DNA of 64,000 nucleotides, from IMG/VR virus record IMGVR_UViG_3300035562_000079, positions 19,743-83,742 of that record; one strand, written 5' to 3'. The notes beneath the pieces were generated by a model. That model had not been told where the DNA came from and searched no databases. It worked only from the letters and a program-made list of their open reading frames with translations. The DNA is from a virus. Its lineage: Duplodnaviria; Caudoviricetes. Position numbers and translations under genes: made by a program. Below are positions 3,198 through 61,300 of this stretch, piece by piece (within the stretch, counting starts at the first letter, position 1; every line of letters starts with the position of its first letter).

Positions 3198-3216
3198 AAT
3201 CTAGGCGAAGTGAGTT
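3198..3216 (-). promoter_or_regulatory. Putative late promoter
   Basis: AACTCACTTC-N3-TAGATT upstream of pmgA. Confidence 0.6.
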
Positions 3217-9307: not shown

Positions 9308-9799
9308 TTACTCCACCCAGTTGTAGACGATGCGCAGGCTTGGGCGGACGGCAACAGTGACGTCTTCAGATGAGAGATCTACTGCTTCAGAGTAGACTTT
9401 GCAGTGAAGCAATGAGCGGGTCAGCCCTTTGTGATCACCCCCGTTCGACTCGGCCGCTGCACTAATGGTGATATCGACGTATTTTTTGCCGAACACCATA
9501 TCTTTCACAGCTGCCAGAACGTCGCCTGTAATGGTTTCGACGCACTGCACCTGTGTTTCCCCACTATTTCGTAGTGCACCGTGCTGGTTGAACTTCATGC
9601 CGCCAGGCGCCACGTCTTCCATGTCCTCACGGGTCATTTCTGGAAGCTGAGCTGTTCGGATCAAGATCGAGAGGTTTTCATACCCCTTAATCACCATCCA
9701 GTATTCCGAGCCAATCAGCTTTTCGCCGGCCGCTAGGTTCTGGTTGAAGCGCTTCTTCATGAAACCAACGTCAGCCTTGGTGTTACCAAATCCACTCAT
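9308..9799 (-). CDS. bplB: Tail tube protein BplB
   Basis: Size, synteny before pmgG, tube-like sequence. Confidence 0.75.
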
Positions 9800-9806
9800 A
9801 ACTACC

Positions 9807-10382
9807 TCAAATGTACATAAGTGGTATTTCCGACTCGTTGTAAGCCGTCATACCTGAGATGTGTAGGGTCACTGTGTTGTGGGCATACATACCCGTTATC
9901 GTGCGCGGTGCGTCCAACTCGTATTGAACAGACTGAATCACGGCATGCATAATTTTTTGACGGCGCCCAATATCCAGGACAACAGGCTTCGGCCGGCGGC
10001 CACCAGGCAGGAAGTTTTTTAAGTCAGGCGAAGCCATTTGCTGCAACATCATAATTGCGGAGTTGACCTCGATCTGGGCATCCACTTTCGCCATGAAATG
10101 CAGCGACAAATTAAACTCAGGTGGCTTTTGACCTTCCCACACCAACATGCTGTTAATTTTCGCTTTTGACGTCGTGGTCGATGCCGCTTGAGTCGCATTT
10201 GAGAGGGTACTCACACCGGCCATAGAGCCAACGGAGTTGTTTTCAAAAGGCGACGACCAAAGGCTTTCGAGCATCGCAACGCTGCCTTCCCCGATGTACC
10301 CAACGACCATGTTGGTACCTGATGTGATGTACGCCTTCAGGAAAGGACTCACGCCATCAGGCATTATTGCGCCACAAATCAC
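9807..10382 (-). CDS. pmgG: Tube initiator PmgG
   Basis: W.SPF, VWEGQ.PP.F and PGGR.P..V.LDIGR motifs; synteny. Confidence 0.75.
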   Translation of the reverse strand: MICGAIMPDGVSPFLKAYITSGTNMVVGYIGEGSVAMLESLWSSPFENNSVGSMAGVSTLSNATQAASTTTSKAKINSMLVWEGQKPPEFNLSLHFMAKVDAQIEVNSAIMMLQQMASPDLKNFLPGGRRPKPVVLDIGRRQKIMHAVIQSVQYELDAPRTITGMYAHNTVTLHISGMTAYNESEIPLMYI

Positions 10383-11156: not shown

Positions 11157-12737
11157 TTAACGCATTAGAACAGGAACGCCTACAATGCGGCGGGATACAC
11201 CCGTCACACACACTTCCCAGCGCACTTCCCAGCTATCGAAACTTGTATTGGTAACTGTCACGATATAAGGCGCATCACCCTGGCTAACATCACGTGGCTT
11301 AACCAAGGCCTCAGCAGCTACATAGCGATCGAGAAGGCGAGGGATGCCCTTTTCAAGACCTTCACGGGTTAAACCATCAGGTTCGTGTTTGAGGGCAGCA
11401 GCTAAGGCGTAGTAATTGCGTGCGATAGAGTTCATCACTGAAATAACATGCTGATATTTCTTGTAGTTCTCTTCGACACAAGTAGTTAGGGCATCATCAA
11501 TAACGATCGCGCCATTTACACTGGTCACAACGTTTAAATGGGTTTTTGCAAAGACTTCGCGGTCAATACTGGCGGCAGCTGGCAGAGGCTGAATGTTTTG
11601 ACGATTAACTACGCCGCGTGACTCGCCAGCCGGGGAGTAATGCCAGCCGCCTATATCAGGTACCAGAGCCACGCCCTTCGCTTTAGCTGTGAAAGCGTCG
11701 CCGGACAAACCAAATACAACATTCGATTGGCTCAATGGATCGCGGCAGGAGAATGGGAAGTAATAGGCTGTGACATTTTCATTGCCACCCAGGCCAAGCC
11801 CGGTTAGTTGCTCCAGCGCCTTATCAGCGGCTAAACGAGGATCAACATCTGCGAACATATCTACACGAACAGCCTTCGCCAGTTCGGCAAGTTTGCCGAT
11901 CGCCGTCGCTTCATAAATGCCCAAAGACAGGATAGCGGTGTACTCCACCAGCGAACCATCCAACACCGCTATGGATGCTGCATAGTCTTTCGACGTCAGT
12001 TTCTTAAAATCGCCGTCAGAGCCACCGACAAATGCTTGACCGTTGATGCCTGTGAATGACGCAGGCAGAGCGACAGTATCAGATATCAGCACACGCAACC
12101 GTGAACCGTTACGTTCGAGGACATCCGGGATATACGCGGAAAGCCCCATGTCATCCAACACGTCTGAATTAAGCGATACTTCGTAATTTTCCAGAGTGGT
12201 TTCTGCTCCCAGCGAGTCAGTTGCCACAAGCTTCAGAGAGAAGATGCCAGGTTTAGTTTTGACAGGCTCAAAACTCAATTTTCGGTTGGTAGACTTATCG
12301 CCATCTTCGACAAAGAAGGTGAGAGCGGCCTTGGCCGGCAAAGTAATGTCGGCACCAAATGCGCTTGTGCTGGTGGTTGCCTTAACTGTAGTAACCGCCG
12401 GCGTACCGGCCGTCTCTACCGTCAGGTTGATTGCAGGGATCAACATGCCAGGCAATGGAATGCGTACCACATAACCGTCACCGCCAACCAAAGCCTGGTT
12501 CACATGACGTAGAGGTTCAAAATACTGGCCCTCTTGTGGTCTTGGAGCTTCACCCAGTACAGATTTGACGTTGTTCTGTGTGATTTTCAGGACTGTATTT
12601 GGTTTGCCTTTCCGAGCAATAACCAGGCCCGCAAATACTGAGGCACCGCCAGAAGTAGATCCGGTTGTTGCTGATGCATCGATTGGCGCAACTGCCGTGC
12701 CGGCAGCCGTACCAAGAGCAAAAGGGATTTTATTCAT
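11157..12737 (-). CDS. 22: Tail sheath protein gp22
   Basis: 526 aa; WHYSPAGESRG sheath motif; synteny. Confidence 0.85.
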   Translation of the reverse strand: MNKIPFALGTAAGTAVAPIDASATTGSTSGGASVFAGLVIARKGKPNTVLKITQNNVKSVLGEAPRPQEGQYFEPLRHVNQALVGGDGYVVRIPLPGMLIPAINLTVETAGTPAVTTVKATTSTSAFGADITLPAKAALTFFVEDGDKSTNRKLSFEPVKTKPGIFSLKLVATDSLGAETTLENYEVSLNSDVLDDMGLSAYIPDVLERNGSRLRVLISDTVALPASFTGINGQAFVGGSDGDFKKLTSKDYAASIAVLDGSLVEYTAILSLGIYEATAIGKLAELAKAVRVDMFADVDPRLAADKALEQLTGLGLGGNENVTAYYFPFSCRDPLSQSNVVFGLSGDAFTAKAKGVALVPDIGGWHYSPAGESRGVVNRQNIQPLPAAASIDREVFAKTHLNVVTSVNGAIVIDDALTTCVEENYKKYQHVISVMNSIARNYYALAAALKHEPDGLTREGLEKGIPRLLDRYVAAEALVKPRDVSQGDAPYIVTVTNTSFDSWEVRWEVCVTGVSRRIVGVPVLMR

Positions 12738-14816: not shown

Positions 14817-14835
14817 ATATTAACGAAAGTGAGTT
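14817..14835 (-). promoter_or_regulatory. Putative late promoter (LP23-like)
   Basis: AACTCACTTT-N3-TAATAT upstream of gene 23. Confidence 0.65.
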
Positions 14836-14915
14836 ATTGAGAGTCACGATAAAAGTGTGGGGTTGTTAATGGAGGTTTGTTAGACTGGTTCTATTAAACT
14901 AATACAGGATTAGTA

Positions 14916-18074: not shown

Positions 18075-18265
18075 CTTTAGAATCTAAATTCTATGGAAAT
18101 TCTTAATCTAAACAAATTATTTAAATCGAAAACTTACGTAACGGAGAATCAAAATGGCACATTTATATATAAGTAATTTCAACAATTTCAACGGGATATC
18201 TTTTGCAGGAAAAAGGTAACGTTGACCGTCATAGGGAGATTGTAGAGGAATATAGAGAGGTAACT

Positions 18266-18580
18266 ATGACTACTGTAACCCAGATGTCTGTGGATGCGGT
18301 TAAAGGTTTCAAAAATGCAAGAGTCGAGTTGAAGACCACCTCGAATCTTAAAGATGTACTTCGTGAAGCGGCGGCTGTCGCCGGTTTAGATTTGACAGCA
18401 TTCATACTGAATGCGGCTTTAGAAAGGGCTGAAAGCGTACTGGATAACCAGCGTCGCCGTGAGCTATCGGAAGAGTCGTGGCATCAGTTGAATCAACTTT
18501 TATCTGAACCGGCCGCACCAACGCTTGCCCTGCAAGCCTTGATGAGGAGGAAAAATCATGGGGAATCGGAACACCAATGA
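18266..18580 (+). CDS. DUF1778 RHH antitoxin (TacA/AtaR-like)
   Basis: ARVELKT...AAAVAGLDLTAFILNAALERAE motif; overlaps GNAT gene. Confidence 0.88.
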   Translation: MTTVTQMSVDAVKGFKNARVELKTTSNLKDVLREAAAVAGLDLTAFILNAALERAESVLDNQRRRELSEESWHQLNQLLSEPAAPTLALQALMRRKNHGESEHQ

Positions 18581-19103
18581 TGTAAGTGGTTCAGCAGTAA
18601 TGGCCTGTACGTATCAGGCGGATATAACGTATCCCGGTCAGAAGAAATTTGACTGTGGAAATGACATTGTGAACAGTTTTGTGCGCAACTCCCTCAAAAA
18701 AAGTGTTGCTGATGGAAATTGCGCTGCAAAATCTCTAATCGATGCGGAAACAGGCGAACTAATAGGGGTGTGTAGCTTCACAGCTTACAGCCTTGCCAAG
18801 CAGGCATTGAGCGGGGTGATCGCAGGCTCTCTTCCTCGAGAAGTTGGGGCGGTGCGGCTGGTAATGCTTGGGGTAGCCACTAAGTATCAAGAACAAGGCT
18901 ACGGTCTGGATCTGTTGCGTGACTTCTTTGAGCAGGTAAAGATTATCCACCAGGCGTTACCTGTCAAAGGTGTCTATCTTGATGCCGACCCAAGCGTAGT
19001 GAGTTTCTATGCTCGTCTCGGGTTTGTTCAACTGAATATGCCACCAAATAGCTTTGGGGCTGTGCCGATGTTCTTGGCGATTCAGCATATCTTAGCTGCA
19101 TAG
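18558..19103 (+). CDS. GNAT acetyltransferase toxin (TacT/AtaT-like)
   Basis: FDCGN, LGVA..YQ.QG.G and FYARLGF motifs. Confidence 0.88.
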   Translation: MGNRNTNDVSGSAVMACTYQADITYPGQKKFDCGNDIVNSFVRNSLKKSVADGNCAAKSLIDAETGELIGVCSFTAYSLAKQALSGVIAGSLPREVGAVRLVMLGVATKYQEQGYGLDLLRDFFEQVKIIHQALPVKGVYLDADPSVVSFYARLGFVQLNMPPNSFGAVPMFLAIQHILAA

Positions 19104-19117
19104 CGCGCTAAAAATTA

Positions 19118-19145
19118 GAAGCCCTGCTTACAAAGCAGGGCTTTC
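19118..19145. terminator. Bidirectional terminator
   Basis: AAGCCCTGCTT-acaa-AGCAGGGCTTT hairpin between convergent genes. Confidence 0.6.
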
Positions 19146-19182
19146 GTGTATTTAGTCCCTTGAAATCAAAATAGTTACATTG

Positions 19183-19518
19183 TCACCTTGTGGTGGCACC
19201 AGCACCAGCACCAGCACCAGCGCCATTCACTTGATTAACAGTTAGGTTGTGATTGTTGGTTTTAGCCAAGCTTGCGAGTACGAGAGGTAAAAACACCATC
19301 GGGTAATCACCGTACTTTGTGATCAGTTCCTCTGGCAATAGGCACATTTCCGCTGGCAGTATTGGCTTGCTGTGTTTTTCCTTCAGCACTGTATTTGGTA
19401 TTGAAGGACTTGATACTTTCGCTGTGCAACCGGATAGCAGCACCAGGGAGAGGCTGAGCAGAGCAAGGATCGTCGGCCATTGCTTCGGTGAGTTTGTATT
19501 GCAATTCGGCGTTCTCAC
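19183..19518 (-). CDS. mlp: Lipoprotein, o-spanin-like Mlp
   Basis: Lipobox LSGC; overlaps the upstream membrane-anchored coiled-coil gene. Confidence 0.65.
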   Translation of the reverse strand: MRTPNCNTNSPKQWPTILALLSLSLVLLSGCTAKVSSPSIPNTVLKEKHSKPILPAEMCLLPEELITKYGDYPMVFLPLVLASLAKTNNHNLTVNQVNGAGAGAGAGATTR

Positions 19519-19840
19519 GTTTGAATACCTCTAATTCTTTGGCTTCTTGAAGGTGTTTGTTGTTGAGTTCGATCAGGCGGCGTTCTGCGTCATCACGCTC
19601 TTCTTTTGTTTGGGTCAATGACAGGCTTAGGGTTTTGTTTACCCCCTCTGCCTCCTGTAGATTCTGGCTCGCCATTTCGATCGCAGATGCCTGGGTCGTC
19701 AATTTCTGCTGTATGGTTGAACAAACAAGCCACACCCCTCCAATGATAAGTAGCCCAGTACCACCGATTAACGCCGCCTTGCGGATATTGGGTATTTTCA
19801 AAAAGTTAAAGGCCTCGAATAACAGGGATAGTGGGAACAT
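19307..19840 (-). CDS. ppfA: i-spanin-like PpfA
   Basis: N-terminal TM, coiled coil, DPC..QPLP motif typical of Rz-like proteins. Confidence 0.65.
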   Translation of the reverse strand: MFPLSLLFEAFNFLKIPNIRKAALIGGTGLLIIGGVWLVCSTIQQKLTTQASAIEMASQNLQEAEGVNKTLSLSLTQTKEERDDAERRLIELNNKHLQEAKELEVFKRENAELQYKLTEAMADDPCSAQPLPGAAIRLHSESIKSFNTKYSAEGKTQQANTASGNVPIARGTDHKVR

Positions 19841-20619
19841 TACTTTTCTCCAAATAGCGCATTAATGACGCTGGTGGGCGTGATCGCCGTTATGGCTCCT
19901 TGCATAGGTGAACTCATACCCATTGAGTCCAGAACTGAAATGCCTACAGCGTTTTTGAAAGCCTTGGCCGCCAGGGCGACAGAAGTAACGCCATCAGCTG
20001 TTAATTTACTTGCCGCCCCATAAGCCTCTGTAAGCCCGCTGGTGGCGTTTTTCATGTCACCGCATGCGGTGACTAATCTTTTAACCAATTCATCGCTTAG
20101 CGTTGGTGCTGGTGGCGCTGTTGGTGCGCTGGCCCCACCAGCTGGCGGCGGGATGTTCAGGATTTTGTTAATGTCGTTCATTACATTGAGCACGGGTTGC
20201 GGATTTACTTTCGTCACTGCGTTTGACATCGCCTTGACGATTACCGTGTCGGCAAGTGCTGTTACCAGCGCGGGTGCAGCGCCGGACGGCTTGCTTTCTC
20301 CCTTTAGGTAACAATCCCAACCAATATTTACGGTGATCAGCTCCGACGGTGATTGGTAGGTGGCGAACGCGGCTACAAAACCCCGCCCGCTCGATTCCGC
20401 AAACTCTAGCGCCTTGGCTACTTCTTTAATTTGACCGATCGGTGCTGAGATGCTCGCGGGATATTCGATACCAGGGAGCAATACAGCCAGCAAAGAATCG
20501 GCTTTATCCTTCGACTGATCGCTTACTGCTGTTGCCAGGGTTACTGAGGCGGCCGGTGTGAAGCCTGATTTATTTAGCTCTCGGAAAGCATTGACCTGTT
20601 TCGGGTTATCCAACATCAA
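19840..20619 (-). CDS. upfB: UpfB-like virion protein
   Basis: IGWD.Y motif and Ala-rich profile as in P1 UpfB; synteny. Confidence 0.7.
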   Translation of the reverse strand: MMLDNPKQVNAFRELNKSGFTPAASVTLATAVSDQSKDKADSLLAVLLPGIEYPASISAPIGQIKEVAKALEFAESSGRGFVAAFATYQSPSELITVNIGWDCYLKGESKPSGAAPALVTALADTVIVKAMSNAVTKVNPQPVLNVMNDINKILNIPPPAGGASAPTAPPAPTLSDELVKRLVTACGDMKNATSGLTEAYGAASKLTADGVTSVALAAKAFKNAVGISVLDSMGMSSPMQGAITAITPTSVINALFGEK

Positions 20620-20900
20620 GCCACCTCCACCAGCGGGTCACCGGATGCTACGACGGAGCCACAAGAAACAGGATCGTCTTTGCAGACGATCCCTTTACCA
20701 TTGACGGTTATCCAAGGCCGGGTTGAAACCGCAGTGCCGCTATGCACTGTGTTACCGTCTGTGTGTTCGCTGAAGGCACTACCATCGACCATTACCGGTA
20801 TACCGTTGATAGTAACCAAAGGGTCACCGTCGACACATGGGCGAGGGGGGAAACCCTCATGCCCAGAGCAAACAGCCCCTTTGACGGAGATATTTGCCAT
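20616..20900 (-). CDS. upfC: PAAR-like spike tip UpfC
   Basis: CSGH.GFPPR..VTING.P..H..D.VSCGS PAAR pattern. Confidence 0.88.
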   Translation of the reverse strand: MANISVKGAVCSGHEGFPPRPCVDGDPLVTINGIPVMVDGSAFSEHTDGNTVHSGTAVSTRPWITVNGKGIVCKDDPVSCGSVVASGDPLVEVA

Positions 20901-21580
20901 TAACGGAACACCCCTTCCAATCTGGCCTGAAAATCCTCTTCTGTTTCTTCAGGCTTGCGTAGTGAGCTGATGTTGAAGCGAGACTTCACTAATGACGATT
21001 TCAACGTTGAGTGGTGCATTACCTGGTACTGCTCGCTGGTGGCTAATTCATAGCACAATGGCTTTTCGCCATTCATTACCAAAGGCTCATCGCAAACGAG
21101 GATCGTATCAGGGTTAATCGCAGCAGCAGATTTTTGCCAATCCTGGGTTGAGGCGAATGGCGCCAAACCCTCGATGATGATATCGATCGGTAACTCAGCC
21201 CGTAGCGCTACGAAATCAGGAGTGAAAGCGCTATGGTCAACGAACTCGACAAACGTGCGGGCTTCATGGCGCTGATAAATGCGATTACCAGTAATTACGA
21301 GGGGCTGATCGCGGGGGAGCATTTCGTTAACCGCTGAAATGACGAATGGGGCGTATTTTGCGGCGTTTTGGCTAACTACGAGTGTCGATCGACGCTTATC
21401 GATCAGGTTAGCCACTGCAATGTTCGTGACGTTATTCGTTAAGCCACACACGGGGCCGGCAAGCAGCATTAAGCGCTTATCTTTGCCGGGGGTGAAGAAG
21501 GCTTCGACCGTATCTTGCTGTTGGGACGTGAGTTTCACCATGAGATGAGGATTTGAAAAAATACCGGAGCTAATTGCCAT
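20900..21580 (-). CDS. Degenerate terminase ATPase-domain paralog
   Basis: Colinear with the N-terminal half of PacB in this window, with mutated Walker motifs (see findings). Confidence 0.55.
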   Translation of the reverse strand: MAISSGIFSNPHLMVKLTSQQQDTVEAFFTPGKDKRLMLLAGPVCGLTNNVTNIAVANLIDKRRSTLVVSQNAAKYAPFVISAVNEMLPRDQPLVITGNRIYQRHEARTFVEFVDHSAFTPDFVALRAELPIDIIIEGLAPFASTQDWQKSAAAINPDTILVCDEPLVMNGEKPLCYELATSEQYQVMHHSTLKSSLVKSRFNISSLRKPEETEEDFQARLEGVFR

Positions 21581-21791
21581 TGCTTATACCTCTCAGCTAA
21601 AGCGTGAAATGAGTTTGAATGGATGAAGGGAGGGCTTAACCGTATCCGAACTGAGTTTTCATTCTTTAGCGGAAGATCGGGTGAAGTTTGGGCTATTAGC
21701 CGTCCTGGCCTTTATGCCTGGCAAATTAGACACGTACAATGGCCCGGTCGGCGGCACGTAGCCGCCATAATCGAAGTAAAAGGGAATTAGT

Positions 21792-22247
21792 TTGAAACTT
21801 AAAACGTTGCTGTTATCGGCATCGATCGCTCTATTGGCGCCCCAGGCATTTGCACAGGAACCTGCAATGTCATTCAAATGCGATCAACTGAATATTCTGG
21901 TGTACAAACAGAGCGACGCCAAAGGGCGCAAAGTGGTGACACTGAACGGCACTAGGCAAGATGATGTAAAGACGTCGCTCTCAACTCGTTCAGGAAAAAA
22001 GGTTAGTACGGTTTCGTTTGTAGAACGCGCCCAAGCTGGTGGCTCTTATGGGCTGTATAATCTGTATATCATTCGGGCTGAAGGCGTGTACTTAACAAAT
22101 GATTGGCTGGATGCCGATGATAAGCCTAAGCGGGAAGCCAAGGTGTATCAGTGCGATTACAAAGGTGAGATTAACGCGGCAACGCCAGCACAATTTACAG
22201 CCTGGGAAGCGCGCAGAAACGCTGAAGCGATGGATGCCCGGAGCTAA
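21792..22247 (+). CDS. Secreted/periplasmic protein
   Basis: Sec signal peptide ending AFA; two Cys; RBS AAGGGA. Confidence 0.7.
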   Translation: MKLKTLLLSASIALLAPQAFAQEPAMSFKCDQLNILVYKQSDAKGRKVVTLNGTRQDDVKTSLSTRSGKKVSTVSFVERAQAGGSYGLYNLYIIRAEGVYLTNDWLDADDKPKREAKVYQCDYKGEINAATPAQFTAWEARRNAEAMDARS

Positions 22248-22250
22248 GCG

Positions 22251-23516
22251 CTACCGCACCTTAAACTTAGGCAGATCTGACCACCGTGTTGTATAGGCAG
22301 GTGAAAGCCATTGCCGCTTCATCTCGAAGCCTGTGTCGATGCCTTGGCCTGCCAAAAATAGCGTGCCTCGAGCGTCTTTGTTTAACCTGTCCATAACAGC
22401 CATTAACTTTTCACTGTTCGGCCGTGGCGGAGCATCGTCAAAGAGTACCAGCTGCGCTTCACGGCCACTAAAATCCGCCAGCATAATGCCCGCTTTAGCA
22501 TACCTGATCCCTGGGCGCCAAATTCGAAGAAGCGCCCGCTGGGCCGCCGCCACAACATCCCGCGTATCCTGTGTAGGCGTGGTGAGAATTTCACAATGTT
22601 GATTGCTGTATTGCACGTCATTAGAAAACGGGCTGGTACGGATAAACACCGATATAGCTTTGCAATACTGTTTTTCCTGCCTCAGCTTTCCGGCCGCTAT
22701 TGATGCGTGACCGCAGATAGCTTGTTGCATATCCACCAGCTCAGTGACTCGCTGACCGAATGATCTGGAGCTGATGATCTGCTGTTTTGTCGGGGGATGT
22801 TCCTCGAGGGCCAAGCAAGCCTCGCCGCGCAGCTCTCGAACGGTACGCTCCAGCATCACGCCAAAGTTCTTCCGTATGAACTTGGTATCGGCAAGGGCCA
22901 GATCCAATGCTGTTTTATACCCCATAACGGTTAATTTTTTTGTAAGCTGCCGACCAACGCCCCAAACTTCAGATACCGGCAACAAGGACAGTAATTTGTA
23001 GCGCCGCGCAGCATCATCAAGCACAACTACGCCCCCCGTTTTGCTCCACGTCTTTGCGGCGTGATTGGCAATCTTCGCAAGGGTTTTCGAGGGGCCAAAC
23101 CCGACACCTATTGTTAGTCCAGTCGCCCGGTAGACGGCATTTCGCAGCTGGTGGCCGAACTCCTCGTAAGACATTGCCTTCCCGAGGCCTGCGCACTCAA
23201 TGAATAGTTCGTCGACACTGTACTGCTCCACGTTGGCTGATAGAGATTCCACTGTTGCGACAAATCGCGCTGACATGTCTGCGTAAAGCGCATAATTTGA
23301 AGAAAATACAATAACTTGATGCTTCTTGATTAAATGTTGCACCTTGAATAGCGGTTCACCCATTTTTAAGCCAGCCAACTTTGCGAGGCGGTTTCTGGCA
23401 ACAATATTGCCATCGTTGTTTGAACTCACGACGACCGCGCGATTGTCCAAGTCTGGTCTGAAAACCTGCTCGCATGAGGCATACATTGAATTAACGTCAG
23501 CAAGTGCAAACATCAT
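22251..23516 (-). CDS. umuC: Y-family DNA polymerase V subunit UmuC
   Basis: FALADVNSMYASCE, YSVDE and LSPAYTTRW motifs. Confidence 0.95.
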   Translation of the reverse strand: MMFALADVNSMYASCEQVFRPDLDNRAVVVSSNNDGNIVARNRLAKLAGLKMGEPLFKVQHLIKKHQVIVFSSNYALYADMSARFVATVESLSANVEQYSVDELFIECAGLGKAMSYEEFGHQLRNAVYRATGLTIGVGFGPSKTLAKIANHAAKTWSKTGGVVVLDDAARRYKLLSLLPVSEVWGVGRQLTKKLTVMGYKTALDLALADTKFIRKNFGVMLERTVRELRGEACLALEEHPPTKQQIISSRSFGQRVTELVDMQQAICGHASIAAGKLRQEKQYCKAISVFIRTSPFSNDVQYSNQHCEILTTPTQDTRDVVAAAQRALLRIWRPGIRYAKAGIMLADFSGREAQLVLFDDAPPRPNSEKLMAVMDRLNKDARGTLFLAGQGIDTGFEMKRQWLSPAYTTRWSDLPKFKVR

Positions 23517-23953
23517 GGTAGCGCCTTGTGCAGCCAGAACGTGACAACCCCCCACACTTCGAATGTGTCAGGATCTGGATATATGGGACTGTATGCGGCA
23601 TTCATCGGCATGAGGCATAGGGTAGGGCGTGTGTGCAACATTTTCACGGTAAACTCGCTATCGACCTTAGCGATGATGATAGAGCCGTGTTTTGCCCGGA
23701 GGTCGCGATCCACTATAAGTAAATCGCCATCATGTATCCCGGCCTCAATCATTGAGTCACCTTCAGCCCAGCCAAAGAATGTTGAGTGCTTTTTGGCGAT
23801 GCAATACTCATTCAGATCCAGGGAGGCATCTTCGTATCCCTGTGCGGGTGAGGGAAACCCAGCACGAATGCGTTCTGCAAATAGCGGGGTGCGCATTTGT
23901 GGCACGCTGGCGCTGGGGTGGAGGATAGGGAAAGGTGCTTCTATAAGTTTCAT
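23513..23953 (-). CDS. umuD: UmuD (S24 autopeptidase)
   Basis: AGFPSPA cleavage site; GDSM and FTVK catalytic motifs. Confidence 0.93.
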   Translation of the reverse strand: MKLIEAPFPILHPSASVPQMRTPLFAERIRAGFPSPAQGYEDASLDLNEYCIAKKHSTFFGWAEGDSMIEAGIHDGDLLIVDRDLRAKHGSIIIAKVDSEFTVKMLHTRPTLCLMPMNAAYSPIYPDPDTFEVWGVVTFWLHKALP

Positions 23954-23969
23954 GATCGCTTCCGTAATA

Positions 23970-23985
23970 CTGTATACATATACAG
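23970..23985. promoter_or_regulatory. LexA (SOS) box
   Basis: CTGTATACATATACAG just upstream of umuD. Confidence 0.92.
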
Positions 23986-24068
23986 TATATATTGCCGGGA
24001 GCGAATTATACAAATACAGCCGTTCGCCATAAAAAAACGCCCTCACTAAGGAGGGCGTTAGACAAGCC

Positions 24069-24434
24069 TTAACGTAGCTGAGCAGTAGTGCAATTATAGA
24101 TTTCCGCCAGCTTGGCTAGTGTCGCGGCCTGTGGGCGCTTCGAGCTTTCCCACTGAGACACGGAAGCCTGCGTTACACCCAGCTTTGCGGCAACATCCGC
24201 TTGGGATAAGTTGCGATAGATGCGCCATGCAGCCAGCAGGCTCACGTCTTCTTTGACTTTGATACCAACGACAGCATGAGGAATTACGTCATCGTCATTG
24301 CTATCTGCTGAGTATGGGACATCTTCATACGCATCATCATTTTCGGCCGCAGCCATAAGACGTTTATAGTCGTCGATCGGTATTACGGCGTAAGCAACGT
24401 TGTCGTTGCTATCTTTCAGAAATTGAACGGACAT
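24069..24434 (-). CDS. HigA-like HTH antitoxin
   Basis: YAVIP.DDY N-terminus plus XRE HTH; downstream of a RelE-like gene. Confidence 0.8.
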   Translation of the reverse strand: MSVQFLKDSNDNVAYAVIPIDDYKRLMAAAENDDAYEDVPYSADSNDDDVIPHAVVGIKVKEDVSLLAAWRIYRNLSQADVAAKLGVTQASVSQWESSKRPQAATLAKLAEIYNCTTAQLR

Positions 24435-24545
24435 ATTTAAATCCTCGACTTCAGGAACAGTTCATAACTCTAACTTAATAAATCATACTTCATACTTATT
24501 AAGTGTTAATTTAACGGTGTTGAGGGGGTTTCCCCCCTCACTCGC

Positions 24546-24806
24546 TTAGCTGTAGGTGTTTGTTGTCCGGCGCTTAACCATCAGTATTTTGATGACCGTT
24601 GGCACCCCGTCGATAACTTCAAACAACACTCGGTAATCACCAACCCGCATCCTGTATTCATTATCGCCATCTTTCATCTTTTTGATATCGAGGTTAACGG
24701 TGGGAAACCCTGTTAACTGGTCGACCTTCTCAAAGATTTTTCGCTTATACCGCACATCGATGCTATCCAACTGCTTCTCAGCGCGGCGTGACCAAACTAT
24801 CTCCAT
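24546..24806 (-). CDS. RelE/ParE-family toxin
   Basis: A.KQL..I and YRMRVGDYRVLF motifs. Confidence 0.88.
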   Translation of the reverse strand: MEIVWSRRAEKQLDSIDVRYKRKIFEKVDQLTGFPTVNLDIKKMKDGDNEYRMRVGDYRVLFEVIDGVPTVIKILMVKRRTTNTYS

Positions 24807-27253: not shown

Positions 27254-27514
27254 AGGGTTCTCCTTGATGTTTTGTAAAACTAATTTCAAATTAGTTTAAC
27301 AGAGTTAATGCTCATTCACGTCAACTTTTGTGCGGGTGACGCTGGTGGTTATGTGAAGAGTTACCAGGAATGTAGCGGCCATATTTGAGAGAGGGAGGGG
27401 GCTTGGAGTGAGGCAAAGCAATATGCCAAATGGAGTAAAGGGGCTATCCTATAATGGCTTTTAAAATAGATAGTTAAATGGATTACTGCAATTTTTAGGC
27501 TTAAGGAAGGTTTT

Positions 27515-35100: not shown

Positions 35101-35176
35101 TGATGTACAGGAGGCGCATTATACACCTAATACTATATTAGTTTAACGAAACATTTTTTTCATCACTGCCGCTACG

Positions 35177-38746: not shown

Positions 38747-40264
38747 CTACGCTGCCCCTTCCTCTGCATCATCAAAGTCATCCAGGTATTTCAACGCGTC
38801 CACTCGTACATTTTCCCTATCGAAACCAACGTCATCATTTGCGGCTACAAAGTCCACCAGCATCGAGAAGCAATACGTATCCCATAGATCTGGTGATTTG
38901 ATATTAAGCTTCTGCCGCATTACGGTTTTCTTCATGATTACGTTCTGTCCCATCTCATTTATATCGACAGGGATTTTACTAGCTTGCTCAGCTGTTTTAG
39001 GGTTCGCATCAAGGCGCATACGACCGGACTTAATCGCATCCCTTGCCATTATGTTGGCAAAAGCGCGCTGGTTGGCGAATCGTTGTTTATCGTCGCGGGA
39101 GTGCATTGGCTTACCCCAATTTATACGAACAACAGGCACACCAAGGGACTCTAGTTCCCTCACTGTTGCATCGCCAATGCCGTCGGCATCAACGGCTATT
39201 GTTATGTTGGGGAACTTCTCTTGAGTGCATTCCTGAAAGATATAGTGAGCAAATTTGACGGGGTGACAGTCGCCGGCCATCTCCATTACCAAGAACGGAA
39301 CAACTCGCCTTGTGTGGCGCCGGCCGGACACCCTGAAAATACTCAACACTGATTTGTCACGGCCGTTACCAACGTCACAACACGCAACCCAACCCCAGCC
39401 TTTATGCAGACGTACTTTCCGCCTTGCTGCCCGTTCGCACTCATCACGTCCCAGGAGGAAGCCATGAGCATTTTTAGGGAACAGGCCTAATACTTTAATT
39501 TGATACTCGGGGTTGTCACGACCACCGTACTCCAACAGCTTACTGCGTATGAACTTCTCATTTACCCACGGGGATTCTTCTGAGTTGAGCGTAATAGCTG
39601 TAAAGTCACCCCTTGGGTTTTCCTTAGAGCGCGCAAGCTTGTGATGGGAGTCGTAGAAATAGCCACTTGGTCGAGTTGGCTGGGATATCAGTAATAGTCG
39701 GTTATCGTCCTCTGTCAGTGCGCCAGTGATGATACCGAAAGCTTTGTCGTTAACACCTGACGCTTCATCGATGATGTAAAATAGGTGTTTAGCGTGTTCG
39801 CCTGCAAGCGCCTCTTCATTACCACGTCGGAAGCCCTTTGGAATGACTGTCCAGCTGCCTTTATTGGCGATCTCATAGAAAGACGTATCAGTGATTACAA
39901 AGTAGTTCTGGAGCCACGGTTGACGGCGAACGCACTCGTTCCAGTTTTGCTTTATATATTTGAAAATACCGGTCATTACCTGTTGGATCTTGTTCGCAAC
40001 GATAATGACGCGCGCACCTGGGTAAAACATCAGGTAGCACAGGATCATGATAGAGGTCATGTCCGATTTACCAGTACCATGCCCCGATGCAACAGTGGTG
40101 CGGCTACCAGTATCTTGGGCGGCGTTGATAATCTCTTCCTGTTGCCAGCTGGGGATCTTACCGAACAGCTCCACGGCTGCCAGGCTCCAGTCATAGCGAT
40201 AGCGGATTACCATATCCCGCCAGCGGGGGTCTGTTGTGACCGAGCGTATCGTTTTACGCGCCAT
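38747..40264 (-). CDS. pacB: Terminase large subunit PacB
   Basis: SGHGTGKS Walker A, IIDEASG Walker B, RNase H DVG..D and SPDLWD. Confidence 0.95.
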
Positions 40265-41501
40265 CTCTTGCCCCTCCTGGCCCATATAACTCATCGTCGG
40301 TTAGTTCGTCATCAAACTCCTCGTCAGACTCAAATTCACTACTGATAAACTCGCCTTCGCGTCCATCTCCATCGGCGTCAATATCTCCGTAACTACCTTC
40401 ATCAACGATCTGCGCAACCATTGCTCGCCGTTCTGCAATAAAGTCCTCTTTACCCTCCCTCATAGCCTTATGCTTTCTTGCTTCTGCATCGATTTGTTCA
40501 TCATCAACGGTACTTGTATTGTCATCAGGCTCAGGTGGCTTGGTGGCCTCTATACGGGCTTGCTGCATCAAATGAGGTGGAACTATGCCTCCGTTTGCTT
40601 CGATGAACTCTGCCGTCTCCTGATAGCTCCAGTCGTGTTCCTTTTGCTGTTCATAGGCCACCGCAATCAGATTCAGAGTTTCCATTTTGATGCTGTGGGC
40701 CTCTTCCTCTCTGCGCGACTTCAACATCACTGAACGTAGTGCACTCATCGATTTGGCTGTTTCACCGATCCCTACACTGACATTGAGTAGCATCTGTAGC
40801 GTTTTGTGTACCGGGTGCGTGCCTCCTTCATCTGGTTTGAAATCGCCAGCCTCCTCGTCTAACCGGTCGAGACTACGATTGCGAGCGCGCTCCATGAGCT
40901 TTAAGTGGGAATAGACCATTGCAATTGAGCGAGCTTCTAGGGTGTTAATGAAGTTTGGATCTCGCATTTCCTCCAGGGTGTCTTCTACATCCTGGGGGCG
41001 AGGCGTTGCATAACGGCCATGAATAATGCACTCCTCGTTCATGTGTCCAAAGCGACGGCCGCCCCGCGCTTTAGGCACATGAAGCAGGGCCGCATCGTCC
41101 ACCCCGTTCTCCGCCGGGAAAGTGATCTTTTTGTCGCTTGCATGATCACGTGCTTTTCGTGATCTCTTATGGTCTGCCGCCTCAGCGCTAAATCGTGCTT
41201 CACCAGAGCTGGTGCGGGTTCGTCGCACATTTTTGGGGGCAGTGATCACGTGATCACTTTCGCTCCCGATAGGATGATCACTTGAACGATCACGTTTGTG
41301 ATCACCTTTAGAGGCCTTTCCTGCTGGCGCTTTCTTTGGTTTATTCTTTGGAGCTGGCTGCGACTGGTCTGCCGACCTCTTTTTCAGCTCCCTACGGGCC
41401 GTATTTGCGTTCAAGCCGTGGGCTTCAGCATATTCCTTGACTGTGATCCCTCGCTCATTTTGGAGCGCGGCAAATCTTTCTCTGTGCTCATCCCAGGTCA
41501 T
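40254..41501 (-). CDS. pacA: Terminase small subunit PacA
   Basis: N-terminal HTH (GLNANTARR), DH repeats, HG.YA motif; precedes pacB. Confidence 0.88.
41123..41304. promoter_or_regulatory. pac site (GATC hexamer clusters)
   Basis: (T/C)GATC(A/T) at 41123, 41143, 41160 and 41243, 41251, 41275, 41287, 41299 inside pacA. Confidence 0.8.
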
Positions 41502-41541: not shown

Positions 41542-41560
41542 GGTATATCAAAAGTGAGTA
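41542..41560 (-). promoter_or_regulatory. Putative late promoter (LPpac-like)
   Basis: TACTCACTTT upstream of pacA. Confidence 0.5.
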
Positions 41561-53300: not shown

Positions 53301-53360
53301 CACTCACTCATTAAAATTAAAAAACTAACTAATAATTAGATTAACGCTAACACCTGTAAT

Positions 53361-57360: not shown

Positions 57361-57580
57361 GATAGTATTCTCGTCGTTAGGTAACACGGGATTGGAAATT
57401 TTCGTCGATTGACAACCCCTCATTAAAACCCGCTTCGGCGGGTTTTTTTGTGCCTGTTTTCCGGCACAAGACAACTATACATTTATTGATTAGTTTAACG
57501 CAACAAAAAATCATGTTTTTGCAATCAAAGTTGATTCAAAGTTGTTATAAATCATAATTGTAAGCATAAAAAAAGAGAGC

Positions 57581-58343: not shown

Positions 58344-61300
58344 TTAGCGATATTCAGCGATCGCTGCCATAACATCTTTCAAATCATGCGTGGCAGGAAT
58401 AATCCACCAGCTACCCATAAACTCCATCCCAGAGCGTTTCCCATTCAGGTACTTAGCTCCAAATTCAGACTTGAGTTTATCCTTAGCCTGGTACAGAGCG
58501 CCACCTATCCCATCGCTATCCTGCAAACCATACGCACCATCAGCGGGGAAATCATAACGGTTAGTACCTTTCCCGCCGGTTAATGGCTGGGTATTTTTTC
58601 GGACAGTAATGCTATCCATGCTGGTGGTCGCTTCGGATACTGCCTCATCGGCTTTCACACGCAGTGTCTTCTCAGCTTCTACGCGGTCGGCCTCAGCCTT
58701 AGCCTCTTCTTCGGTTATCAGGCCTGCACGCAATTTTAGTCCCGCCAGGAACGCAGTATTGTCGCTGTTAGCTGCACTGAAGGCTGAGTCAATCATTTTG
58801 GTCGTTTCACCGATCATCGAGCTGTCATAAAAAGCGGATTCGGTGATGCTCTCCTTGTCGATCAACCCCATGATGACCGCGTGCGCATAGAACTCATCCA
58901 GATTATATGCATCGTAGTTAATGGCCCCGAAAGACGATGATTTATACATGGGTGATAACAATAGAGCCGTAGCTCTAAATTCTTTGGCCTTCTCGTAAAC
59001 CGCACTCACAGGTAGCGTCAGATTATCGCCATATCGCAACCAGGCTGCGTGCGCGATGCGCTTCGCTTGCTGGACAACATTTTCATGATGCTCGGCAGTT
59101 TTCTGCCTTGTGGCAGCAGAAAGCACCGGCTGGAAGTCCTCGATGTTTCTGTACTCGCTAGGGATATAGTTTGCTTTAAACGGGGGGATTACATTGCTTA
59201 TGTACTGCGTGGCATCGTATTTCCCTGTAAGCAGGTATTCGCTGTACTGAGACACTTGGCTACCGTCAAATTTCCGATTTTTAAGGTCGGTTTTCTCAAT
59301 CGAACGTGCGATATACGCAGCAACAATCTCATCAATAGCCGCTGGGCTTGCGATCTCCCCGTATTTATTAACCTCGCTACGCCACTCCCGGCCAAATAGT
59401 CCGATAAGGAATGGCTCAATACCTCTCACATTCCGATCAGAGCGGCACCACTTTGCCATAGCAGTTTTAAGCGTATCGTCCTGAGTGTCAGGGTACACTA
59501 CGCTCGCCGCATTTTTGGTTAGCCATTCCATACCTTCACTAGTGATGATCGGGTTAGGGGAATAGGAGCGTGTTATCCGTAAATCATAAGTATCCAGTTC
59601 ACCTGCATCATTGCGATATACCACCCTCGTATCGCTCAGAATCAGCCAGCCATTCGCAAGATATCGCTCAAACTCGCCCTTAGTCATCTGTTCTTCTACA
59701 GAATGCGTGTAGCGCCCTGGGGCGGCCCACGCTCTGAGAGTGGCCTCGGATTCCGGCACATCGCTGTCTCCGCCCAGGTCGGCAAGGACAACCGTCTTAC
59801 CGTTCTCCAGCGAACCCCCTTTGTTGTCTTCAAAGAAAATAACATCAGCAAGACCAGTACCGGCGTCAATGTCGATCGTCCGCAGGCGAATATAGCTTCG
59901 GCTACCTGGGTTCAAGCGGTAAATGCCACCGCGCTTTATCATTCGCCCATATGCCGTCTGAACGTAGCGATCGCCGTGTGTCAGAATATCGGTATCAATG
60001 TTCAGTAACCCTGCCTTGATTGCGCGTTCAATTTCCGGTGAGAGTTGCTTAATTCGGTCGGCCGCTTTCTGCATTCGTAAAGTAACTCGTTCAAGTCGTG
60101 TGACTTCGCGCGTTTCCTTCTGTAATGATTTTTGTATGGCACTTACCCAATCTCGCGCATGTCGTTCCACGCCGGAATACTGCGAACTCATCCCCTTTTG
60201 CACATCATCACGCGCTGCCGCAAGTTTACGCTCGGCCTCTGCCTGACGCGAACGAGCACCGGCTAGTTGCGAGGCAATCGTAGTTGCGCTCTCTTTCTCG
60301 GCATGACTCATCTTGAGGTATTCCGCCAGATTAGCCTCAGCTCGCTGACGGGCTTTCTCTCTTGCAACTGCTTCGGCCTTCGAGCGGGCCTCAGCGACCA
60401 TGCGAGCGTGATCTTCCGGGTTAGCAGCAAGCAGCAGCCGCATTTCTTCCTGGTTATTGGCGTCCGCGTTTGCCATTCGCGCCTTATCCGAGGTGAGAAT
60501 TTCGGTAATCCAGTCCTTTTTACGTTTCAGCGTATTGAGCCGGAATTCGTCAAACGAACCCTTACCACAGTAGTAATGGACACGAACGGAACTGGCTTTT
60601 GAACCCACACGCGCACCACGGCCGTTGCGCTGGTCGATGCTGGCAGGCGTCCACGGCAGAGTTAGATGGTGAACATCACTGGTACCACGGTGAAGGTTGA
60701 TCCCTACTTCGGCCTTTTTATTACAGATCAGGAACGGCGTTCGGCCTTCGTTGTAGTTCGCTGCGATTTGCTCCAACCCGCCAAGGGATACTTCCGTTTT
60801 TTTGGCGATATACTCGTCATACTCCTCTTTGGCCTGGTAGTAGTTCGCTAATTCTTCCTGACTAGCGTCTTCTTTCGGTTCTTTTGGTTCTGCGACAGCT
60901 TTGTGTGCCCTCCCTGTTTTCCCCGCATCAGCGACGGTTGTCGCGTTGAGAATGCCGATCAACGACAGGTCAATTCCGAGAGCATCAGCAATAATGCGCG
61001 CCAATTTTCCATGCTGCGTTTTTTCATCGGTAAATATGATCTGCTTGCCGGTTTTAACCCCTTCTTTCAGATTCTCGACCAGCGCACTGTATTTCGGCGG
61101 TACCGGATGCGATACATCGGATACATGCAAGCCCGCTTTGCCCAAACGTTTCAACACCTCGCTTTCTGCTGCCTCCGACACAACAAGCTGAACGAAATCG
61201 CTGGTGGTTGTAACTTCCGGGGCAACCTTGATCCGCACAGACTTACTGCTATCGTCGTCCTCATCGAGCTTACGACCGACATATTCCGGTAGCAGATCCA

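Follow-up and report, generated by a model that had tools for sequence, protein, structure and literature searches.

Terminase ATPase domains constitute a main target of bacterial pattern-recognition immunity, as exerted by Avs1-3 and Upx. In the account given of the individual sensors, for EcAvs2 the isolated ATPase domain suffices as activator (with five of five terminases), and the sensor touches the terminase-bound ATP via a bridging ATP, SeAvs3 reads the active-site residues together with the bound ATP, and for all tested homologues of Upx the ATPase domain alone causes activation, largely independently of the Walker B Asp (PMC13601566). The same report describes vs.8 of phage T4, a terminase-ATPase-like protein that stands alone, has its Walker motifs conserved and is toxic with EcAvs2, and lists the functions of vs.8, Ksap1 and Ksap2 as unknown, with anti-defence roles being suggested by its authors (PMC13601566). 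Ksap1 and Ksap2 are described as small phage proteins with a weak resemblance to the terminase ATPase, which trigger KpAvs2 (PMC11564622; PMC13601566). These three proteins are recently recognised and as yet unexplained activators of terminase-sensing immunity. The family of the 226-aa protein analysed here is a natural, conserved version that lacks precisely those residues that hold ATP and carry out catalysis, and it offers a ready-made probe of whether a terminase domain devoid of ATP triggers, escapes or blocks the sensors and whether it touches the packaging motor.

The gene of the 226-aa protein is located in a window of 64,000 nucleotides, which is the whole stretch of DNA that was analysed and belongs to a virus record of 83.7 kb that has direct repeats at its termini, and the gene shows 99 % identity over its length to an 84-kb Serratia marcescens plasmid. 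The genome contains a P1/D6-type set of genes, namely PacA/PacB, a RepB-type replication initiator and ParM-like and ParA-like partition genes, along with genes for the tail and baseplate, Dam and Dcm methylases, umuDC and toxin-antitoxin pairs, and is therefore that of a phage-plasmid (of Serratia). The coordinates of the features discussed are collected in the table.

Table. Features of the window and motifs of the 226-aa protein; nucleotide positions are those of the window.
Feature	Position	Strand	Remarks
Bidirectional terminator-like hairpin	19119..19143		closes the gene run
Rz1-like lipoprotein (o-spanin)	19183-19518	-	overlaps the Rz-like i-spanin gene
Rz-like i-spanin	19307-19840	-	
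UpfB-like protein, 259 aa	19840..20619	-	phrog_1559
PAAR spike-tip gene, 94 aa	20616..20900	-	P1 UpfC / T4 gp5.4-like
Stand-alone terminase-ATPase-domain homologue, 226 aa	20900..21580	-	intact ORF
Conserved block before the start codon	21593..21615	-	crAss001_48-like gene remnant; holds AACTCATTTC
Divergent protein, 151 aa	21792..22247	+	signal-peptide-like N-terminus; phrog_13864
PacB, complete large terminase, 515 aa	38747..40294	-	GHGTGKS and YIIDE intact, nuclease half present
PacA, partner subunit of PacB	40254..41501	-	candidate binding partner of the 226-aa protein
Q motif	Q20-Q21 of the 226-aa protein		
Degenerate Walker A, AGPVCGLT	A41-T48 of the 226-aa protein		
Walker B strand, then G138	I132-E137 of the 226-aa protein		strand from the AlphaFold2 model

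Two toxin-antitoxin-like pairs flank the region (18203-19103 and 24069-24806), one consisting of a DUF1778 protein and a GNAT acetyltransferase and the other of a RelE/ParE-like toxin and an HTH protein, the names being taken from the annotation of the near-identical plasmid, and umuD-umuC is found at 22251-24046. In L002, a 52 %-identity relative, the place of umuDC is occupied by a gene of the Hcp family (type VI secretion tube-like; 9558-10037 of that locus), approximately 2 kb upstream of its terminase-like gene. At 58344-63998 an ORF of more than 1,880 aa runs off the window, and its SNF2, ResIII and helicase-C domains are reminiscent of the DarB anti-restriction protein of P1.

The relationship of the 226-aa protein to terminases only becomes visible at the level of profiles and structures. 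BLASTP of the protein against PacB gave no match (best E 24), and searches of Pfam, PHROGs, NCBIfam, PADLOC and PDB sequences returned no matching family; no Pfam terminase model scored above its gathering score, the best being GpA_ATPase (E 0.01) in two of eight members, with none for the window protein. Matches of the protein to DarT and a MTase in PADLOC (E 0.005-0.025) were treated as chance. Relatives were recovered by a word-indexed search of 5.8 billion clusters (four), by an exhaustive HMMER scan of 1.84 billion representatives (four at E <= 0.001) and by a second profile search (nine), and the resulting family alignment comprises 11 distinct sequences, including that of the window, with identities down to 21-22 %. 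When compared by hhalign with a 24-sequence PacB alignment, the 11-member family matched with a probability of 92.8 % (P 4e-7, score 57.0, 188 columns), the match spanning 16-216 of the family and 39-247 of PacB and pairing the Q motif, Walker A, the next strand, Walker B, SQPT/CDEP and NSEESP/STLKSS. As controls, 60 column shuffles scored 16.1 on average (sd 2.9), with none above 28.2, and the score of the reversed alignment was 19.6. With the distant sub-clade by itself, PacB was still matched in the same region (71.8 %, E 3.5e-5), and the Serratia-only sub-alignment gave no match to PacB (probability 0.5 %). Among six single window proteins compared with the family, PacB came out on top (38.1 over 196 columns); for the ParA-like P-loop protein the score was 25.1 over 28 columns, and for the DarB-like helicase region, the ParM-like protein, a 446-aa ORF and UmuC about 15-17.2.

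The initial annotation had aligned the protein by eye with PacB, for which it quoted the motifs SGHGTGKS and YIIDE; both are present in the 515-aa PacB, and hhalign pairs the same blocks, but three of them are one residue off the register originally noted. Its description of the protein as a paralog of this phage's PacB stands as far as homology is concerned, which the profiles show, but at an identity of ~14 % to PacB a duplication from that gene is without support.

Consistent with the profile comparison, an ESM feature search places the 226-aa protein next to Terminase_6N clusters (0.97, with 197 of 256 features in common), and the distant member P0008, which is 22 % identical, likewise (0.96); the Atlas single-sequence model of P0008 superimposes on terminase clusters with a TM of 0.75-0.77. 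AlphaFold2, given the 11 family sequences and no templates, produced a model with a pLDDT of 84.3 and a pTM of 0.85, and a model from 5 close sequences (pLDDT 39) was discarded. In Foldseek searches of the PDB, the ATPase domain of P74-26 TerL came first (E 1e-6), followed by the terminases of T4 (gp17), D6E, Sf6 and HK97, and the top matches in BFVD were terminase large subunits, which bears out the terminase fold that had been proposed by eye. The structural matches cover model residues 1-226 and span entire ATPase-domain constructs (residues 3-253 in the case of P74-26), and the 226-aa protein therefore ends at the ATPase/nuclease boundary, as had also been proposed. The DFQARLEGVF block at its C-terminus corresponds to the end of the PacB ATPase domain, the C-terminal RNase-H-like nuclease domain is absent, and the PAAR gene begins at the stop codon of the gene. 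The protein is, in all likelihood, a complete but catalytically degenerate terminase ATPase domain and nothing else.

The degeneracy is common to the family. The position of the Walker A Lys is taken by L, V, M, T or A, with Lys or Arg in none of the 11 members, and the P-loop of the family reads [ASTH]G[PI]xCG[LVMTA][TS] versus SGHGTGKS in PacB. The acidic residue of Walker B (E or D) is retained in 11/11 sequences, as E137 in the window protein and as Asp in the distant members, and is followed in every one of them by a Gly, the catalytic Glu being missing; in the register of hhalign, which is one residue off, the positions of the Asp and the Glu are both non-acidic, so the Glu is absent in either register. 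The SQPT block, invariant in the PacB alignment, is not conserved in the family. The loss of the Walker A Lys, which the initial annotation had read from the one protein, is thus found in 11 of 11 relatives together with the replacement of the catalytic Glu by an invariant Gly, and none of the 11 sequences has intact Walker motifs. Other parts of the site are conserved, namely the Gln21 of the Q motif (invariant, 11/11), the P-loop glycines G42 and G46, an invariant Cys45, the Ser/Thr that follows the missing Lys, and the residues N58...R64-x-T66 as a patch. Members of the family have an acidic pI (5.3-6.7), versus a basic pI of 8.7 for residues 1-280 of PacB.

Within the gene run, base 20900 is common to the TAA stop of the 226-aa gene and the ATG of the PAAR gene (TAATG), so that the intact ORF and its coupling to PAAR are found as initially annotated; the overlap implies that the two genes are probably translationally coupled. 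According to the annotation of D6, the PAAR gene corresponds to upfC of P1 and the 259-aa gene to upfB. In the cryo-EM description of P1, UpfC forms a monomeric spike tip on which UpfB is arranged as three trimeric "tripods" (PMC12810830), and upfC has been reported to be dispensable for plaque formation (PMC9024508). The order of the 226-aa, PAAR and UpfB-like genes, the one-base overlap and an open frame are preserved at five of five loci (the window, L001, L002, L006 and L007); the Rz/Rz1-like pair comes next in the run at four of them, being not evident in the ORF list of L007, and the divergent 151-aa gene is a conserved neighbour in L001, L002, L006 and L007. The gene had been said to lead a virion/lysis operon, and it is indeed the first of the co-oriented run of PAAR, UpfB-like and spanin genes in the window, but the second gene in relatives. 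The ORF of the Rz1-like lipoprotein ends in a Gly-Ala repeat (GAGAGAGAGA, 19183-19232) and is 111 aa long in the window versus 103 aa in L001, L002 and L006; the length of the repeat may vary.

In an upstream alignment of four loci, a conserved block lies directly before the ribosome-binding site. It contains AACTCATTTC (21606-21615, minus strand), previously interpreted as a weaker copy of a late motif. The string is there, but with up to one mismatch it is matched 6 times versus 5.1 expected and is thus not enriched. In L007, an intact 70-aa gene at 9776-9988 ends in ..RISRFS stop (Pfam crAss001_48, E 5.8e-19), in L002 a gene of the crAss001_48 family (11712-12004) has its frame split by an internal tandem duplication, and in the window, L001 and L006 only the last codons of the crAss001_48-like gene are left. 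The block is the 3' end of a gene still complete in L007 but lost from the window, and AACTCATTTC is therefore a gene remnant, its reading as a late-motif copy being unsupported; the remnant codons I S R F S stop occupy 21610-21593, and the Shine-Dalgarno sequence GAGAGG (21594-21589) overlaps the remnant's stop. As for other motifs, AACTCACTTT occurs exactly at 271-280 and 14826-14835 and with one mismatch at 3207-3216 and 41551-41560. Its copies precede pacA and runs of tail genes, with an AT-rich -10-like hexamer 2-3 bases behind them, and the motif is a candidate for the late-promoter box of the phage. Near the 226-aa gene it is found with two mismatches at best (21606-21615 and 21648-21657), and no sigma-70-like site was found on the strand of the gene. 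Another string, TTAAACTAAT, is present in the window in 14 copies with at most one mismatch, including those at 14894-14903, 27275-27299, 35137-35146, 53335-53344 and 57489-57498, often as inverted pairs just upstream of gene starts (e.g. AAACTAATTTGAAATTAGTTT at 27275-27299), and a single copy, TCAAACTAAT (21786-21795), is located between the 226-aa gene and the divergent 151-aa gene; these copies are candidate operators of a phage repressor. Contigs from RNA libraries (four runs, two studies) contain a 90-99 % identical variant of 19101-22300, which includes most of the gene and is no proof of its transcription or timing.

The dN/dS of the 226-aa gene, determined according to Nei-Gojobori, is 0.086 between the window and L006, a pair with few changes, and 0.072 between the window and L007, where dS is 1.29 and near saturation; for comparison, it is about 0.05 for PAAR and about 0.20 for the UpfB-like gene. 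As judged from these ratios, the gene is under strong purifying selection, and with a dN/dS of about 0.08 it is therefore not decaying. The protein is shorter than a terminase and its catalytic residues are gone, as would be expected of a functionless, decaying fragment of a second terminase gene, but the dN/dS, the intact frames at five of five loci, the fixation of the same substitutions in relatives down to 22 % identity and the confidently folded model (pLDDT 84.3) render such an origin extremely improbable. Neutral decay, which the initial annotation had named as the contrary outcome, was not found and is effectively excluded.

The distribution of the gene is narrow. It was found in 2 of 72,556 plasmid records, both from Serratia, in none of 50,697 phage records searched with four family probes, and in 2 of the 45 viral records that contain a PacA homologue (1 of 20 among those at least 90 % complete), and D6 and JK004 have PAAR-UpfB and lack the 226-aa gene. 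It is, accordingly, a rare accessory gene restricted to the nearest relatives of the phage-plasmid, and packaging does not need it, since it is absent from 43 of the 45 PacA-bearing records as well as from D6 and JK004. None of the distant relatives P0006, P0007, P0008, P0010 and P0011 was located in scans of viral, genome and metagenome contigs, and a genome-contig scan with the Serratia-only sub-alignment gave no match. The GC content of the gene (0.495, versus 0.490 for the window) shows no trace of a recent acquisition from a foreign source and is not decisive as to its origin.

A terminase fold from which the hydrolytic residues and the nuclease are missing would not be expected to translocate DNA, and the 226-aa protein thus probably works by binding and not as an enzyme. 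The explanation that is ranked first, and which is put forward tentatively as possible, is that it is a mimic that does no more than bind, its targets being the partners of the terminase itself (PacB, PacA). The partner of the 226-aa protein would be one with which the ATPase domain of the true terminase is ordinarily in contact, i.e. PacB itself or PacA, and a non-hydrolysing look-alike, made alongside the late virion genes, could tune or cap the packaging complex, for example by covering the exposed ATP-site face of PacB before PacB assembles on the procapsid; both the partner and the effect are guesses. Several observations count against such a packaging partner, as the gene is 18 kb away from pacA-pacB and is absent from the large majority of PacA-bearing records (43/45, and 19/20 of those at least 90 % complete), the surface of the protein is acidic, unlike that of PacB, and most of the ~40-residue N-terminal extension of PacB is missing from it. 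In other terminases, the binding of the small subunit often maps to the N-terminal extension. A further proposal, which is considerably less likely, is that of a "terminase shield", in which the dead copy would dock on the ATP-site face of monomeric PacB, in the manner of a neighbouring ring subunit, or in the pocket of the sensor. The surface hidden in this way would be the active site with the bound ATP that is read by Avs2/Avs3-type receptors, and it would stay hidden until PacB assembles on the procapsid, with the loss of its own ATP site keeping the shield itself from being sensed. If true, it would be the first case of a phage countering terminase-sensing immunity by means that are built from the sensed protein itself.

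Ranked behind the packaging-partner mimic is an interference with the host sensors (Avs1-3, Upx), in which the 226-aa protein would sit in the pocket of the sensor, leave the ATP-dependent interface incomplete and so block the sensing of PacB. The residues lost are the ATP-holding ones, and it is terminase-bound ATP and active-site residues that EcAvs2 and SeAvs3 are described to read (PMC13601566); the accessory region has toxin-antitoxin pairs, umuDC and a DarB-like gene, and an anti-defence role of stand-alone terminase-like proteins has been suggested (PMC13601566). It has to be noted, however, that ATPase domains alone activate EcAvs2 (5/5) and all tested Upx homologues in that report (PMC13601566), which argues against a simple decoy such as the initial annotation had considered, that Ksap1/2 and vs.8 appear in their published descriptions as activators and not as inhibitors, and that an acidic pI is a poor fit to a pocket described as complementary to terminase in shape and charge, leaving this explanation rather unlikely. 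The third place is taken by a reuse of the fold as a chaperone or adaptor for the UpfC-like spike tip or the UpfB-like tripod, the protein then helping to assemble the tail tip or being one of its minor constituents. This is suggested by the stop/start base shared with PAAR and the constant gene order at five of five loci, the downstream genes being those of a P1-type membrane-piercing apparatus (PMC12810830), but UpfC-UpfB occur without the 226-aa gene in D6, JK004 and P1, and in L007 and L002 an extra small gene is present in front, so that the site looks like an insertion spot. With no terminase-fold protein with a tail role known to us either, this role is judged improbable. Similarly doubtful, and ranked fourth, is a ligand-dependent protein, either a switch or a non-canonical enzyme, holding a nucleotide or phosphate ligand in the remodelled P-loop (GPxCG). 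The retention of the Q-motif Gln, the P-loop glycines, the Ser/Thr, the Walker B Asp/Glu and the Cys could mean that a ligand pocket is still used, and Q21, G42, C45, G46 and the acidic residue of Walker B are kept even in relatives that are only 22 % identical. Nevertheless, no family with this P-loop motif emerged from the Pfam, NCBIfam, PADLOC and PDB sequence searches, and the Walker A Lys and the catalytic Glu are both lost, which in P-loop NTPases normally abolishes hydrolysis and weakens binding.

Compared with the large terminases (P74-26 TerL, T4 gp17, HK97, Sf6 gp2, D6E and PacB), the 226-aa protein has the same ATPase-domain fold, but it has no nuclease, has lost the Walker A Lys, the catalytic Glu and the SQPT-type motif, and is acidic. 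Among ring ATPases, inactive subunits such as the clamp-loader delta and delta-prime keep the P-loop fold, have lost the catalytic residues and have a structural or regulatory role; unlike for these, there is no sign that the 226-aa protein joins a ring. The literature searches made for this analysis returned no account of a phage protein consisting of a catalytically dead terminase domain. The closest known proteins are vs.8 of T4 and Ksap1/2. Like the 226-aa protein, vs.8 consists of the ATPase domain only (219 aa versus 226 aa) and is encoded by a lineage-restricted accessory gene, but it keeps Walker A (GRQSGKS) and Walker B (YIIDE), which the 226-aa family does not, and its gene stands in a different context, in an early region of T4. 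Compared with the family by hhalign as a single sequence, vs.8 aligned over no more than 36 P-loop columns (E 0.051). Ksap1 and Ksap2 resemble the 226-aa protein in being small, lineage-specific phage proteins that are similar to the terminase ATPase core. Judged by these sequence comparisons, the 226-aa family thus appears to be a further, separate lineage of stand-alone terminase-ATPase-like proteins, and the only one found in which the active site is degenerate.
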